DNA of 6,761 bases, taken from IMG/VR virus record IMGVR_UViG_2778261223_000006, positions 1 to 6,761 of that record; one strand, 5' to 3'. Made by a program: the position numbers and the translations under genes. The DNA is from a virus (Duplodnaviria; Heunggongvirae; Uroviricota; Caudoviricetes). Below, piece after piece: positions 1,010 to 6,539 of this stretch. The notes under the pieces were generated by a model, which was not told the DNA's origin, made no database searches, and saw only the letters and a program-made list of their open reading frames with translations. How positions within the stretch are numbered: the first letter of the stretch is position 1; each line of letters starts with the position of its first letter.

Positions 1010-2446
1010 TCAGAATCCTCCTTTCTTCTTGGATTGCGGTTCCTCGCGTTCACGGCGGCGCATTTCAGCGGACTGTTGGTCTGTGTCATAAATAGCGCCA
1101 TTTGCCTGAATGCAATACACCGTGCCGGTATTGCCATGACGATTGAGACGAAGGATTAGTTCGGTTTCACCAGGTGGAACACTGTCATCAAAAGCACCTT
1201 CACGATGGATCCCCACCCAATAATCGCAATCCTGTTCAATCTGCCCTGTATCTCGTGAGTCACTTGGTAATGGGCGTTTATTGGTTCTGCTTTCCAGTGC
1301 GCGGTTAAGCTGCGTCAGAAGCACAACAACGCAATCAAGCTCTTTGGCAAGGTTCTTCAGTCCTTTGGTGATCATGCCGTAAGCAAGGTCGTTGCGATCG
1401 GCCTTCTCAGCAGTCATTAGTGTCAGGTAATCGACCAGAATCATGCCAACACATCCTTTTTCTCGCTTGATTCGACGACTTTCGCTGACGATTTGAGCCA
1501 GAGATAATCCCGGCGTGTCGTCGATGTAAAGCAGGTCGATTTCACTCAAGCGATTGGCTGTTTCGATCGCCCTGTTGAAGTCACCATCGTAATCACCCTG
1601 ATAGCCGTCATCAGCGTCATTTGTCGCCGGAAGGTAAAAAATATTCGGGTTAACACCTGACTTCTGTCCTACCAGTTTTTCCAGTATCTGGTCACCGGGC
1701 ATTTCAAGGCTGAACATCAGAGCGGGCTTTTTCTCATGCACTGCGCAGTTGATTGCCATCTGGCTGTATAGCGTCGTTTTCCCCATCTTAGGGCGAGCGC
1801 CAATGACAAACAGAGAGCCTTTCACCAGACCTTTCGGTGACAGCATCCTGTCCAGCGATGGGATCCCTGTGCTCATTCCTCGTTGTTCGCCTGACGGGTC
1901 AAATCGCTTCTCAAGGTCGCTAACCCAGTCTTCCATGACCTCACCAAATGAGCGAAGGCCGCGACGCGATCCGGTTTTTGCATGGTCTGTCAGTTGCGTA
2001 AAAATCGCCTGAATAGCTTCGTACTTCTGCGTCGCAGTCATTCCGTTGCGGGAATAGAGCAATTCCGTCGCTTCAGTCATGCGGTTGATGGCGTAGCGTT
2101 CCATTGCGGTTTCACGAACCTGCATTGCATAGGCAACGATGTTTGCTGCGCTTGGCGTGTTCTTTGCGATCTCAGCGATATAAGCAAAACCGCCAACAGA
2201 CGCCGTTAACGATTTACGCTCCAGTTCATCGAAAAGCGTCAGGCCATCTACTGGCTTTTGCTCCCGGTGCATTCTGGTTATTTCTTCGAAAAGGATTTTG
2301 TGTGGTCGGCTGTAAAATGAATCAGGCTTCAGCATCGCCAGAACTTTCTGGACGCGCTCACTGCTGTCATCATCCAGAAGCAATCCACCAATCACCGCCT
2401 GCTCTGCCTCGATGCTATGGGGCGGCGCATAAAAATTATCGGTCAT
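1010..2446 (-). CDS. dnaB: Replicative DNA helicase, DnaB family
   Basis: Near-colinear with E. coli DnaB as I recall it: N-terminal PHSIEAEQAVIGGLLLD, FAYIAEIAKNTPSAANIVAYA, Walker A GARPKMGKTT, and LTQLNR...RPLPSDSRDTGQIEQDCD. The track ORF starts at a GTG at 2461; I prefer the ATG at 2446 (MTDNFYAPPHS...), which has SD GAGG about 10 nt upstream. Confidence 0.93.
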   Translation of the reverse strand: MTDNFYAPPHSIEAEQAVIGGLLLDDDSSERVQKVLAMLKPDSFYSRPHKILFEEITRMHREQKPVDGLTLFDELERKSLTASVGGFAYIAEIAKNTPSAANIVAYAMQVRETAMERYAINRMTEATELLYSRNGMTATQKYEAIQAIFTQLTDHAKTGSRRGLRSFGEVMEDWVSDLEKRFDPSGEQRGMSTGIPSLDRMLSPKGLVKGSLFVIGARPKMGKTTLYSQMAINCAVHEKKPALMFSLEMPGDQILEKLVGQKSGVNPNIFYLPATNDADDGYQGDYDGDFNRAIETANRLSEIDLLYIDDTPGLSLAQIVSESRRIKREKGCVGMILVDYLTLMTAEKADRNDLAYGMITKGLKNLAKELDCVVVLLTQLNRALESRTNKRPLPSDSRDTGQIEQDCDYWVGIHREGAFDDSVPPGETELILRLNRHGNTGTVYCIQANGAIYDTDQQSAEMRRREREEPQSKKKGGF

Positions 2447-3326
2447 CGTGTTCACCCTCACGAACTTTCAGGTAGGTATTATCGTTAAGCAGGAAATCAA
2501 ATCCCTTTTTGTGCCAGACGGTTCCGCGTTGATGGTTTGGGCGCTCTTCGAACATCCATCGGCAATTTTCGCCAACGTAGCTCAAATAATTTCTCCAGTC
2601 CTGCATCGTGAACCCATGCCCGTCAAGTTGGCGTGTTATTACTCCGGCTTTGCGCCAGAACGTTCGGATCTGGTTTTTACGCTTGTCATTCAGTGCGCGG
2701 ATTCTTGGCGCTTCAGGAAGGATTTCGTGGTAAGCATCGACAACATCCTGACAGCTGACGGAAGGTTTTTTCTTGTCAGACTTTTTGTCTGCTGTGGCAC
2801 TCTCTAATACGTCAGTATTAGAGATATTATTTATATTATTGTTTATGGACAACCGTTGGACAACCGTTGGACAATCTCCGCTGAGAGCCGCGCCATTACT
2901 GGTGTTTGCGTTGGACAACCGTTGGACAACCGTTGGACAATTTTTTGCCTGAAAATCGTCATATTTAACGATTGTAAACAGGCTAAATTTCTTCCCCATC
3001 GAGCAAATATTAAGCATCCCTTTCGACTCAAAAGTCCGTAATAAGCTCCGAACTTTGTTGTCGGGGATGAATGTTTCTCTGACCAGCGACGGGCGTCCAG
3101 TTATCATCTGACCGCGATCAACAGTTATCGGCCCGATATCCGTATTGACGACAGTAGATTCGTGATTAGCCTTGAGGATTAAGTGAAGCCAAAGATGTAC
3201 TGCCTGAGAGTCCTTATAGAGCCTGCTGTCCATAAACTGGCGGTGTATAGAGACATACCCCATACTGGATGCCTCCTGATGTTGTACAGGGTTATGCCTG
3301 TAATCAGCTAACTTAACGACGCCCAT
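2436..3326 (-). CDS. O: Phage replication initiation protein (lambda O-like origin-binding protein) with the origin embedded in its coding sequence
   Basis: Sits between cII and the helicase as in lambdoid replication modules. Contains internal iterons plus an AT-rich tract (2810-2940), encoding a repeated CPTVVQRLS linker peptide. SD AGGAG 6-7 nt upstream of the ATG at 3326. Sequence family not confirmed from memory. Confidence 0.75.
   Translation of the reverse strand: MGVVKLADYRHNPVQHQEASSMGYVSIHRQFMDSRLYKDSQAVHLWLHLILKANHESTVVNTDIGPITVDRGQMITGRPSLVRETFIPDNKVRSLLRTFESKGMLNICSMGKKFSLFTIVKYDDFQAKNCPTVVQRLSNANTSNGAALSGDCPTVVQRLSINNNINNISNTDVLESATADKKSDKKKPSVSCQDVVDAYHEILPEAPRIRALNDKRKNQIRTFWRKAGVITRQLDGHGFTMQDWRNYLSYVGENCRWMFEERPNHQRGTVWHKKGFDFLLNDNTYLKVREGEHDDR
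2810..2845. other. AT-rich DNA-unwinding region of the replication origin, adjacent to the iterons
   Basis: Sequence tacgtcagtattagagatattatttatattattgtttat is strongly AT-rich within an otherwise balanced coding region. It lies immediately downstream (in gene orientation) of the iterons, as in lambda ori. Confidence 0.6.
2846..2874. repeat. Origin iteron cluster 1: tandem 11-bp direct repeats ccgttggacaa (two full units and one partial)
   Basis: Direct read: tggacaa (2846-2852), ccgttggacaa (2853-2863), ccgttggacaa (2864-2874). Lies inside the O-like gene. Confidence 0.8.
2909..2940. repeat. Origin iteron cluster 2: three tandem copies of (c)cgttggacaa
   Basis: Direct read: cgttggacaa (2909-2918), ccgttggacaa (2919-2929), ccgttggacaa (2930-2940). 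Separated from cluster 1 by a 34-bp spacer. Confidence 0.8.
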
Positions 3327-3474
3327 GCTTCACTCCTGCTTTGGCTAGTCTGTAAACACCAACAAGGCGCTCTGCGAACGCCCTGTTATTTGCTGCGGCT
3401 ACCACTAATCCCTCAGGTGAATCAGGGTGTCGAATCTCTTCTTTTTCCTGGTATTTCTTACGACGTTTTGTCAT
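3313..3474 (-). CDS. Hypothetical small basic protein (53 aa) between cII and the O-like gene
   Basis: Translated by hand: MTKRRKKYQEKEEIRHPDSPEGLVVAAANNRAFAERLVGVYRLAKAGVKHGRR. Strong SD AGGAG 5 nt upstream of the ATG at 3474. Stop overlaps the start of the O-like gene by 14 nt. Absent from the ORF track (below its length cutoff). Confidence 0.5.
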   Translation of the reverse strand: MTKRRKKYQEKEEIRHPDSPEGLVVAAANNRAFAERLVGVYRLAKAGVKHGRR

Positions 3475-3508: not shown

Positions 3509-3787
3509 TCAGGCCTCGAAGAATTCGCCGTTCTTCGGGGCTTTTTCTTTTGTCAGCATTCTGGCTACTTTCTTAGCCAGTTCCGCCAACTCCTCGTCTT
3601 CAACACCCCATTCAAGAACAGCAAGAAGCATTCCCATTTTGGGGATGAAGCTGTCTTTCCATCGCGAAATTTGCGATTCATTAATCCCTAACGCGTCGGC
3701 AACCTTTCGCTGACCACGTACAGCAATTCGATTCAGGATGTTGCTTGTAATTGCATTCGCTTTCTTGCGAGTACTTGTAAGTTGCAT
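3509..3787 (-). CDS. cII: Transcriptional activator CII
   Basis: The core SQISRWK...IPK...MLLAVLEWGVEDEE aligns with lambda CII (SQISRWKRDWIPKFSMLLAVLEWGVVDDD). The RBS/start context TTAAGGAAATACTTACATATG is lambda-like. Position directly downstream of cro and nutR. Confidence 0.9.
   Translation of the reverse strand: MQLTSTRKKANAITSNILNRIAVRGQRKVADALGINESQISRWKDSFIPKMGMLLAVLEWGVEDEELAELAKKVARMLTKEKAPKNGEFFEA
3741..3754 (+). promoter_or_regulatory. Candidate CII-binding box (TTGC-N6-TTGC) of a PRE-like promoter reading towards cro/cI, inside the 5' end of cII
   Basis: TTGC ttgtaa TTGC read on the plus strand at 3741-3754, antisense to cII codons about 11-15. Lambda PRE has the same TTGC-N6-TTGC architecture within the cII N-terminal coding region. 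No clear -10 identified. Confidence 0.35.
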
Positions 3788-3895: not shown

Positions 3896-4090
3896 CTATT
3901 TGTTTTTCTTGTTGCTTGGGAAAGGACGAACTTCCTCTCCAATCACACTGCCATCAGGCTTTACCGTAACCATAATGTTACGGCCTGCCAGAATGGCCTT
4001 GCTGATAGCGCACTGGATTACACCAAAGTCACTGGCTGCTTTAGCCTGTCCATGGATTTTGGCGTAATCGGCAAGTGTCATTCGAATCAT
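3896..4090 (-). CDS. cro: Cro repressor
   Basis: [64 protein letters not shown] aligns along its length with lambda Cro ([63 protein letters not shown]). The track begins at a GTG at 4096; I prefer the ATG at 4090, which has SD GGAG 7-8 nt upstream. Confidence 0.9.
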
Positions 4091-4119
4091 ATGCACTCTC
4101 CGTTATTAACCATGAACAA

Positions 4120-4196: not shown

Positions 4197-4913
4197 ATGG
4201 AAAATAAAAAATCACTGACGACAGAACAGCTCGAAGACGCTAAGCGGCTTAAGGCTTTGTATGAGTCAAAAAAGAAAGAATTGGGAATAACCCAATACTC
4301 AATCGCTGATGAACTGGGTATCACCCAAGGAGCGGTAGGGCATTATCTTAATGGCAGAAACGCGCTAAACGTTGAGGTCGCATCTGGTTTTGCACGTTTG
4401 TTGCAAGTCTCAATTGCTGATTTTAGCCAGTCAATTGCTGCCAAGGTTGCAGAACAGGCAGAAAGCCTTAAGAGCGATGCCAACGTAAGGTATGCAGGGG
4501 AATACAGAGCAGGAAAGAGGTATCCGGTGTTAAGCAGTATCCAGGCTGGCTCGTGGTGTGAAGCATGCGAACCATACACCATTAAAGACATAGATGTTTG
4601 GCTTGAGTCTGACGCGCATATTCAAGGTAATGCGTTCTGGCTTAAAGTGGAAGGTGATTCAATGACGGCACCGGTTGGGTTAAGCATTCCAGAGGGAACA
4701 TTCGTTCTTTTCGATACCGGAAGGGAGGCGATCAACGGCAGCTTGGTCATAGCAAAACTTTCTGACTCTAACGAAGCAACATTCAAGAAGCTGATAATCG
4801 ACGGCGGAAATAAATACCTCAAGGGACTTAACCCTGCATGGCCTCTCGTGCCAATCAATGGAAACTGCAAGATTATAGGCGTTGCAATTGAGACAAAACT
4901 AAGGCTGGTTTGA
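4197..4913 (+). CDS. cI: CI repressor (HTH DNA-binding domain plus S24 LexA-like autopeptidase domain)
   Basis: N-terminus LTTEQLEDAKRLKALYESKKKELG matches lambda CI ([24 protein letters not shown]), with a divergent recognition helix. Ala-Gly cleavage site (IQAGSW), catalytic Ser (VEGDSMTAP) and Lys (ATFKKLI) motifs are present. Confidence 0.95.
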   Translation: MENKKSLTTEQLEDAKRLKALYESKKKELGITQYSIADELGITQGAVGHYLNGRNALNVEVASGFARLLQVSIADFSQSIAAKVAEQAESLKSDANVRYAGEYRAGKRYPVLSSIQAGSWCEACEPYTIKDIDVWLESDAHIQGNAFWLKVEGDSMTAPVGLSIPEGTFVLFDTGREAINGSLVIAKLSDSNEATFKKLIIDGGNKYLKGLNPAWPLVPINGNCKIIGVAIETKLRLV

Positions 4914-4932: not shown

Positions 4933-5301
4933 ATGGTTGGAACCGCTATAGCAAGCTTTTTTGGGATGTTGGCAATCTCAACAATTTACGGCTTAGCGCA
5001 TGCTTTTATTGCGAAATCTCTATCAGAAAAAATAAGCCAGGCTTGGGCGCATAGATCAGCTCGTTTCATGATTCTAGTGGTCATAGCAATACAAGGGATA
5101 TCTGCATTTATCCTCTATGGATCAAGCTTATACCTGTTGTATCAAGGCGCGACATTTACGCCTTACACCAGTGATTACGGAACTCTATACGATGGTAGTG
5201 AAGACATCTCTATGGCTTGGATCGTCTTTGGTTTATCTGTGGCCGTGTCTGTTGTAGCAGACATCATTAAGGTAATTCTCGTCTTAACCTTCGCTGACTA
5301 A
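4933..5301 (+). CDS. Integral membrane protein (122 aa, about 3 TM helices) co-transcribed with cI; candidate lysogen-expressed exclusion/defence protein in the rex position
   Basis: ATG lies 19 nt after the cI stop, with SD AAGGGGGA between. Three long hydrophobic segments (residues about 5-27, 45-70, 95-120). Occupies the slot between cI and OL/PL that holds rexA/rexB in lambda. No family recognised. Confidence 0.75.
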   Translation: MVGTAIASFFGMLAISTIYGLAHAFIAKSLSEKISQAWAHRSARFMILVVIAIQGISAFILYGSSLYLLYQGATFTPYTSDYGTLYDGSEDISMAWIVFGLSVAVSVVADIIKVILVLTFAD

Positions 5302-5668: not shown

Positions 5669-5941
5669 ATGACAGTAGTCATTACATATCTGGCTGACGA
5701 TAACGCCAGAAATCGCCGCAGAGCACGCAGACAGGCTCAACGTGAACAGGCAATGCAAGAACAGCGACTGGCGCGAAAAATTGCGCTAAAGCTCTCTGGT
5801 TGCGTCAGAGCAGATAAAGCAGCATCACTCGGAAGCCTTCGCTGCAAGAAGGCAGATGAATGCAGTGGAAGTATTTGCCTGCCAAACGTAGCTATTTACG
5901 CGGCAGGCTACCGGAAATCAAAACAACTGACGGCGAGATGA
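5669..5941 (+). CDS. N: N-like transcription antitermination protein (90 aa) with N-terminal arginine-rich motif
   Basis: First gene downstream of PL/nutL. Arginine-rich motif DNARNRRRARRQAQREQ near the N-terminus, as in lambdoid N proteins that bind boxB. SD GGAGG 4 nt upstream of the ATG. Confidence 0.65.
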   Translation: MTVVITYLADDNARNRRRARRQAQREQAMQEQRLARKIALKLSGCVRADKAASLGSLRCKKADECSGSICLPNVAIYAAGYRKSKQLTAR

Positions 5942-5957
5942 TAAATTAATTTGCTAA

Positions 5958-6539
5958 TTACTTGTTTTTGCCGTGCTTATCCTGAGCGATAAGTTCATCC
6001 ATAAGACTGTCTTTCTTCCCAGCAAACCTAATGTAGCACTCATTTCTATAGCGTTCTGGGATAACAAAACGGTCGATTTCAGGATATCCAGTAGCAGAAG
6101 GTATCCGAATAAGAAGCCCTTTTTCGAGCAATGAGATTGCTTCAGGGCTTCCCTTTTCCGTTTGTAGCTGGTTATTAGCGACTACAGCGAGTGCCAAATA
6201 CGCTCTTTCTCCAAGAGTTAACGAATCAAACAAATCTTGCACGTATTTCTCTTCTTTAGATTTGCGCTTCTGAGCAGCGAATACCTCAATTCTTTCAGTC
6301 ACAGCGTGATAAGCGGAATTAACAACGCCGTTAAGCACATAGCTAACGCAAAACAACAGGATGTAATACATCCAGTAATGAGGAAGGATTTCTGGATTAT
6401 GCAGGTTTATCCATTCTTTTACGCTTACCGGCATAACAATAATCAATATGATCAGGATGATTAGCATATGAATCAACTGTTTAAGTGTCATTCCTTGCAG
6501 GAAAAAATGCATTAGTTCCTGCCACCATGAGTTGTTCAT
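5958..6539 (-). CDS. sieB: Superinfection exclusion protein B-like membrane protein (193 aa)
   Basis: Convergent with N, as sieB is in lambda/P22. N-terminal hydrophobic TM segments (LIHMLIILIILIIVMPV, YWMYYILLFCVSYVL). The sequence matches my recollection of lambdoid SieB but this is unverified. Confidence 0.65.
   Translation of the reverse strand: MNNSWWQELMHFFLQGMTLKQLIHMLIILIILIIVMPVSVKEWINLHNPEILPHYWMYYILLFCVSYVLNGVVNSAYHAVTERIEVFAAQKRKSKEEKYVQDLFDSLTLGERAYLALAVVANNQLQTEKGSPEAISLLEKGLLIRIPSATGYPEIDRFVIPERYRNECYIRFAGKKDSLMDELIAQDKHGKNK

Follow-up and report, generated by a model that had tools for sequence, protein, structure and literature searches.

The direct repeats analyzed here very probably serve a lambdoid phage of E. 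coli/Shigella as its origin of theta replication, situated inside the gene for the phage's own initiator and operating by the mechanism proposed below. This reading draws on direct observations of the anatomy of the element, its homologies, its covariation among related phages and its occurrence at a single site in a related genome.

The stretch of DNA under study (6,761 nt, hereafter the window) comes from a lambdoid phage and represents its region for immunity and replication, with genes assigned by ORF translation, Pfam, TIGRFAM and PHROG. The minus strand carries the early right operon, comprising Cro (3896–4096), CII (3509–3787), a 53-aa ORF of unassigned function (3313–3474; PHROG 1331, HK97 gp53-like), the 296-aa replication initiator (2436–3326) and a 478-aa phage DnaB-family replicative helicase starting from the ATG at 2446 (1010–2446). 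The cI-type repressor (4197–4913) and the left-arm gene N (5669–5941) are encoded on the plus strand, and the left-arm gene for SieB (5958–6539) on the minus strand; the nearest complete phages are mEpX2 and HK620. The initial annotation of this DNA had paired the initiator with a DnaB-family helicase rather than with a lambda P-type loader, and this pairing is borne out: the product of the next gene matches Pfam DnaB and DnaB_C and scores 584 bits against TIGR03600 phage_DnaB (cutoff 499), and no lambda-P or DnaC-type loader was found in the window. The initiator gene overlaps the upstream 53-aa ORF by 14 nt (3313–3326) and the helicase start by 11 nt (2436–2446), which suggests translational coupling along the operon.

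Anatomy of the candidate origin

Between positions 2842 and 2940, the window carries two clusters of three 11-bp units each, with the gene-strand unit TTGTCCAACGG. Read on the plus strand, CCGTTGGACAA is present exactly at 2853, 2864, 2919 and 2930, a unit with one mismatch (GCGTTGGACAA) is found at 2908, and a 7-base remnant (tggacaa) occupies 2846–2852; the core common to all six copies is TTGTCCA on the gene strand. TRF reported a period of 11 with 100% match in both clusters, and allowing up to one mismatch the unit was matched five times, compared to 0.07 matches expected, a count reached in none of 200 shuffles. Cluster A (2908–2940, minus strand), promoter-proximal in gene orientation, consists of TTGTCCAACGG, TTGTCCAACGG and TTGTCCAACGC, codes for residues ~129–140 (NCPTVVQRLSNA) and corresponds to the first half of the rep_origin feature annotated in Shigella phage Sf6. 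Cluster B (2842–2874, minus strand), which adjoins the AT-rich tract described below, consists of TTGTCCAACGG, TTGTCCAACGG and TTGTCCAtaaa, the last unit having only the 7-base core left. The spacer between them (2875–2907, minus strand) measures 33 bp (3 × 11) and contains no recognisable iteron. Given this gap and the 66-bp distance (6 × 11) between the cluster starts, all six units lie in one 11-bp register. In the complete genome of mEpX2 (38.8 kb), iteron clusters are found solely inside the initiator gene.

Identical 11-bp units fall in all three codon phases of the initiator gene (TGT CCA ACG G, TT GTC CAA CGG and TTG TCC AAC G), which indicates that the repeat is selected as DNA and not as peptide.

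These observations largely sustain the initial annotation, which had placed two tandem clusters of 11-bp repeats at this location (recovered here by TRF and motif scan), had reported an in-frame duplication of the peptide CPTVVQRLS (present twice, 22 aa apart, in the translation of the 296-aa ORF) and had described an AT-rich stretch following the repeats in gene orientation (GC = 0.225 over 2800–2839). Its count of five full copies and one partial copy needs adjusting to four exact, one near-exact and one partial copy, and its distance of 34 bp between the clusters exceeds the measured gap by one base pair. The statement that the repeats possess no internal dyad is correct for the single unit; the junction of tandem units does form a 4+1+4 palindrome, CAACCGTTG. 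We considered this junction as a binding dyad and rejected it as incidental, since phage L has already lost it (CAACGGATG) and other homologs lack it.

Pairs of sigma-70-like hexamers (TGGACA-18-GACAAT, 9/12 matches) were also noted at 2846–2875 (plus), 2912–2941 (plus) and 2863–2835 (minus). With 9/12 matches and a count near that in shuffled sequences, they were set aside as promoters and are probably a by-product of the iteron repeat.

The AT-rich tract (2825–2845, minus strand; TAAACAATAATATAAATAATA) is located 3' of the repeats in gene orientation, contains one G/C base in 21 bp, codes for an Asn/Ile-rich peptide (INNNINN) and is a putative DNA unwinding element. An AT-rich tract also sits after the iterons in SPP1 oriL and in other homologs. 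Directly after the tract in gene orientation, we identified a perfect palindrome, TCTCTAATAC-GTCA-GTATTAGAGA (plus strand, 2801–2824), with 10-bp arms at 2801–2810 and 2815–2824 and a 4-nt loop, a feature that the initial annotation had not mentioned. As folded single-stranded DNA, it has a predicted energy of −7.5 kcal/mol (z = −5.65).

Across seven homologs, this palindrome is kept by compensatory changes: 8 of the 10 pairs change on both sides, 97% of the pairings are Watson-Crick and wobble pairs are absent. None of 500 shuffles reached the observed values, and pairing fell to 29–47% when the 3' partners were slid by 1–3 columns. The peptides encoded at the palindrome differ (ISNTDVLES, ISSTDVEES, NSLTNVRES, TSNTNVLDS and LLPNGSKYV). 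A terminator scan flagged the element, and it has been auto-annotated accordingly in phage L. It may thus terminate antisense transcripts intrinsically, a reading that we did not adopt; just 3 of the 10 pairs are G-C.

The initiator and its relation to SPP1, lambda and P22

The initiator is composed of a G38P-like N-domain (aa ~20–130, nt 2937–3269), a linker predicted to be disordered that carries the origin DNA (aa ~139–188) and a helical C-domain (aa ~190–293, nt ~2445–2759). Aligned with SPP1 G38P by hhalign, the N-domain yielded a probability of 97.8% (E 7.6e-13, aa 20–130). SPP1 gene 38 and staphylococcal 'DnaD-like' initiators were recovered as tblastn matches, PHROG 2514 and 186 agree with a G38P-type N-domain, and the initiator itself belongs to PHROG 345 (E 5.8e-85). 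The Pfam family Phage_rep_O (PF04492), to which lambda O (E 5.7e-36) and P22 gp18 (E 6.9e-38) belong, matched neither the window protein nor its N-half even at E <= 1, and hhalign of the family alignment with lambda O gave a probability of 0.3%. The C-domain exhibits a weak likeness to that of P22 gp18 (25% identity, E 2e-4). Judged by its N-domain, the initiator is of the G38P type and not of the lambda O family; the designation 'O-like' in the initial annotation is appropriate with respect to function and gene position, and fails on the domain search.

An AlphaFold2 model generated from a shallow alignment was of moderate confidence (mean pLDDT 68.8, pTM 0.43). It predicts an N-domain with the order helix-helix-helix-strand-strand-strand-helix-helix-strand-strand (pLDDT 73–90), a linker with pLDDT < 50 (aa 139–188) and a helical C-domain with pLDDT 80–90. 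The DNA coding for the low-pLDDT linker includes cluster B along with the AT-rich tract and palindrome, and cluster A is just upstream. A search of the PDB sequences with the family profile returned nothing at E <= 1, and Foldseek comparison of the model with the PDB returned weak, non-significant winged-helix matches (best E 0.04); 'winged-helix-like' is used here for the N-domain as a description of topology only.

In Bacillus phage SPP1, G38P binds the direct repeats of oriL inside gene 38, beside an AT-rich unwinding element (PMC5737612, PMC6316719), and theta replication of a 356-bp oriL fragment has been reconstituted with G38P, G39P and G40P (PMC6316719, PMC5737612). Specific binding of an initiator to its repeats and origin activity of the fragment have been established experimentally for SPP1 only (PMC5737612). 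In SPP1 gene 38, we found a period-11 array of 4.6 copies, presumably equivalent to the published 'AB boxes', followed by an AT-rich array. The window and SPP1 share a homologous N-terminal origin-binding domain, an origin lodged in the initiator gene right after this domain, with a period-11 repeat array and then an AT-rich element, and a DnaB-family helicase encoded downstream. They differ in that SPP1 has one contiguous array in place of the 3+3 arrangement, a separate loader (G39P) encoded between initiator and helicase, a second binding site (oriR) and a C-domain of the Phg_2220_C type, unlike that of the window protein; no flanking palindrome was seen at the SPP1 origin. On account of the G38P-type N-domain, SPP1 oriL is the closer mechanistic model than lambda.

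With lambda and P22, the window has in common the place of the initiator in the early right operon, the succession along transcription of iterons, an AT-rich tract and a palindrome whose loop is 4 nt, and a two-domain logic in which the N-domain serves the origin and the C-domain the partner; P22 gp18 further resembles the window initiator in working with a DnaB-type helicase. As read from the sequence, the lambda palindrome has 12-bp arms and a 4-nt loop and is located directly after the AT-rich tract, and the analogous P22 palindrome is CCCCCTAAAGGGGG. The lambda ori architecture proposed in the initial annotation is thus matched even more closely than had been claimed. An analogous hairpin is present in lambda and P22, the initiators of which are unrelated to the window protein in the N-domain; our literature search returned no function for the lambda palindrome. 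The iterons themselves are different, four of ~19–20 bp spaced by 20, 24 and 23 bp in lambda and P22 as compared to six 11-bp direct units in the window, and each lambda iteron includes an inverted repeat (read from the sequence), whereas the window units lack a conserved dyad. Neither the Phage_rep_O domain nor the four ~19–20-bp iterons that mark the lambda O/P22 gp18 family are present in the window.

We propose a mechanism in which the winged-helix-like N-domain of the 296-aa initiator would bind the six direct TTGTCCA(ACGG) units. Since the units share one 11-bp register, the domains, once bound, would occupy approximately the same side of the helix as two triplets offset by 66 bp. This nucleoprotein assembly, together with supercoiling, would melt the adjoining 21-bp AT-rich tract. 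Recruitment of the phage's DnaB-type helicase, the gene for which lies immediately downstream of the initiator and is apparently translationally coupled to it, would fall to the C-domain and would involve no loader of the lambda-P or DnaC type. The flanking palindrome is a conserved part of the putative origin and may act as a hairpin or dyad site for helicase loading or priming, and the duplicated CPTVVQRLS peptide would be a by-product of a cis site accommodated in a disordered interdomain linker.

Binding alone is no proof of initiation, and the repeats could be sites bound by the initiator for autoregulation, handcuffing or copy control, or an oriR-like fork barrier, with initiation taking place elsewhere. 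Such a role has a precedent in SPP1, where the second site bound by G38P, oriR, is proposed to stall forks rather than to fire (PMC6316719). We nevertheless regard this alternative as unlikely: the iterons lead directly into an AT-rich tract and then a conserved palindrome, which is the full layout of an origin, the 38.8-kb mEpX2 genome offers no second iteron cluster, and in SPP1 it is the in-gene site, oriL, that fires. The comparative evidence favors the placement of an origin inside the initiator gene, as suggested in the initial annotation.

Covariation and natural variants of the iterons

The element is already known, as a putative origin only. The window initiator gene shares 99.1% identity with Sf6 gene 43, in which the GenBank rep_origin feature ('putative; repeat region reminiscent of the phage lambda origin; similar to phage HK620') corresponds to window positions 2846–2941. 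A two-piece rep_origin with the same 3+3 layout is annotated in the HK620 O gene, the phage L record has a 'putative origin of replication' in gene 18, and a 2021 paper on phage L describes six 11-bp repeats, as the likely origin (PMC8022706). Being annotated in Sf6, HK620 and L, with the repeats described in print, the element is ordinary as a discovery. According to genetic work summarized in that paper, the replication genes of P22 and L do not permit single exchanges, and a swap of the whole region works (PMC8022706). The literature searched contained no direct experiment on this iteron type (origin cloning, footprinting or mapping of replication starts). As in the Sf6/HK620/L-type phages, the window combines two 11-bp triplets 66 bp apart with a PHROG 345 initiator and, next to it, a phage_DnaB helicase. 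No difference of substance separates its putative origin from those of Sf6 gene 43, coliphage HK620 and HK022 gene O and Salmonella phage L gene 18; HK620 and HK022 are distinguished from the window by the iteron core TACCAGCA and a diverged N-domain (65% identity overall).

A scan of viral contigs with a profile of the family alignment yielded 80 loci, of which 79 were 98–100% identical and one 93%. As this added no diversity, GenBank phage records were used instead. The initial annotation had named absence of the repeats from homologous initiator genes as evidence that would speak against an origin, and the repeats are retained: initiators with 78% (phage L), 65% (HK620), 47% (Klebsiella phage ST512-KPC3phi13.1) and 42% identity (Enterobacter phage CobraSix) all have 3+3 units with a 66-bp offset at the same place. 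The respective iteron cores are TGTCCAACGG, TACCAGCA, TGCCAACA and TGTCCAGCC, and a further variant is found in Cronobacter phage ENT47670. Across the aligned homologs, the iteron sequence changes together with the N-domain.

A natural chimera is provided by Erwinia phage vB_EhrS_59 (1738–3389, own-locus numbering), in which the same N-domain (41% identity) and 3+3 11-bp iterons are combined with a lambda O-like C-domain (70% identity), with a lambda-P-type loader encoded next and not a DnaB-type helicase. This arrangement implies that the iterons follow the N-domain, and that the partner, be it a DnaB-type helicase or a lambda-P loader, follows the C-domain.

Initiator alleles of 274, 296 and 318 aa in the protein database differ by an exact 22-aa (66-bp) module, corresponding to one, two and three clusters, as illustrated by a one-module allele at 1501–2325 and a three-module allele at 1501–2457 (both in own-locus numbering). 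The spacer and one cluster are gained or lost jointly as a 66-bp module in these natural variants. One-, two- and three-module alleles occur in many E. coli, Shigella and Salmonella prophages. Some prophages have one cluster, so that conservation of all six units is not strict; among isolated phages, the 15 records listed of 43 contained no single-cluster case, with two clusters in 15/15.

An in-frame module, a duplicated peptide and a copy number ranging from one to three are also what a slippage-prone, duplicated coding segment would produce, the repeats then encoding a linker peptide and having no cis role. This explanation is very improbable, as a peptide cannot account for DNA identity among 11-bp units read in three frames, the region is predicted to be disordered, and the repeat co-varies with the DNA-binding domain and retains its 11-bp period across phyla. 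One Logan contig (317–1195) points in the same direction. It has a 1-base deletion before cluster A and has lost one 11-bp unit in cluster B, so that the 28 residues between the clusters are read in another frame (IVQRLSNGCPTQTPVMARLSAEIVQRLS), with the ORF open and the DNA otherwise kept. The hint that the linker peptide is dispensable is weak, since one assembly shows it and the changes could reflect an error in that assembly.

Recognition of the repeats by a protein other than the product of the gene containing them, for instance DnaA or IHF of the host or a different phage protein, has in its favor that TTGTCCAAC agrees with the DnaA box TTATCCACA at 6/9 positions, a weak match. It is equally hard to credit, since the repeat changes with the encoded N-domain even among phages of the same hosts, and the Erwinia chimera holds N-domain and iteron type together with the C-domain and partner swapped.

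An initiator-bound theta origin thus continues to be the preferred reading of the repeats. For annotation purposes, the 'O-like' initiators of Sf6, HK022, HK620 and L-type phages can be classed by their N-domain as G38P-type replisome organizers. Moreover, the iteron/N-domain covariation, the variants with one to three clusters and the compensated palindrome provide material for tests of origin specificity, incompatibility and the role of the hairpin in E. coli.

The wider G38P-like family and neighboring signals

Nearly all sampled genes with a G38P-like N-domain contain 11-bp arrays followed by an AT-rich tract. In distant members, arrays with a period of 11 or 22 and about 3.6–6.4 copies are located directly after the N-domain: period 11 in Staphylococcus phage SA7, Vibrio phages 1.135.O and 1.157.O, Lactobacillus phage Lrm1, Cellulophaga phage phi18:3 and Listeria phage P7, period 22 in Anoxybacillus phage A403, and a weak array in Shewanella phage 3/49. 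Pectobacterium phage ZF40, with a 24-bp instead of an 11-bp repeat, was counted neither for nor against this pattern; its match is weak (24.5% identity with the CobraSix query, the first ~55 residues unaligned). In staphylococcal phage 80alpha, the G38P-like ORF20 could not be complemented in trans (PMC5499656), which indicates an origin inside that gene.

Most distant members have an A-rich array with a 9-bp period after the iterons. Its three-codon AT-rich units include AAGAATGAA, AATAAAGAT, AATAAGGAG and AACAATGAT, and the arrays encode peptides rich in Asn, Lys, Glu and Asp. The 9-bp period appears to be a recurrent way of fitting an unwinding element into a reading frame.

A broader reading, which we offer tentatively and consider rather doubtful as a whole, joins two propositions. 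The first is that initiators with a G38P-like N-domain in phages of Firmicutes, Bacteroidetes and Proteobacteria would have one origin layout in common, namely head-to-tail 11-bp iterons in one helical register and then an A-rich tract, with a 9-bp period in the distant members sampled. According to the second, the hairpin after the unwinding element in the enterobacterial phages, strictly Watson-Crick, maintained by compensation and capped by a T(G/A)AC loop, would act as a signal in its own right, such as one for helicase loading or priming. If true, the shared layout would point to initiators arrayed on one side of the DNA in a filament-like manner, in contrast to the lambda O-some formed on dyad iterons.

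Two further features of the window were noted outside the origin. A strong terminator-like hairpin with 14 pairs (6 G-C) followed by a T-run is present at 3511–3543 (plus strand), in antisense orientation to the 3' end of cII, where lambda has its oop RNA terminator; the annotation of P22 is similar. At gathering score, this hairpin was assigned to no Rfam family, nor did Rfam at gathering thresholds match any other part of the window. Directly 3' of cI, a 122-aa hydrophobic ORF (4933–5301, plus strand; PHROG 6534), which is also present in HK620 and mEpX2, may encode a prophage-expressed membrane protein.
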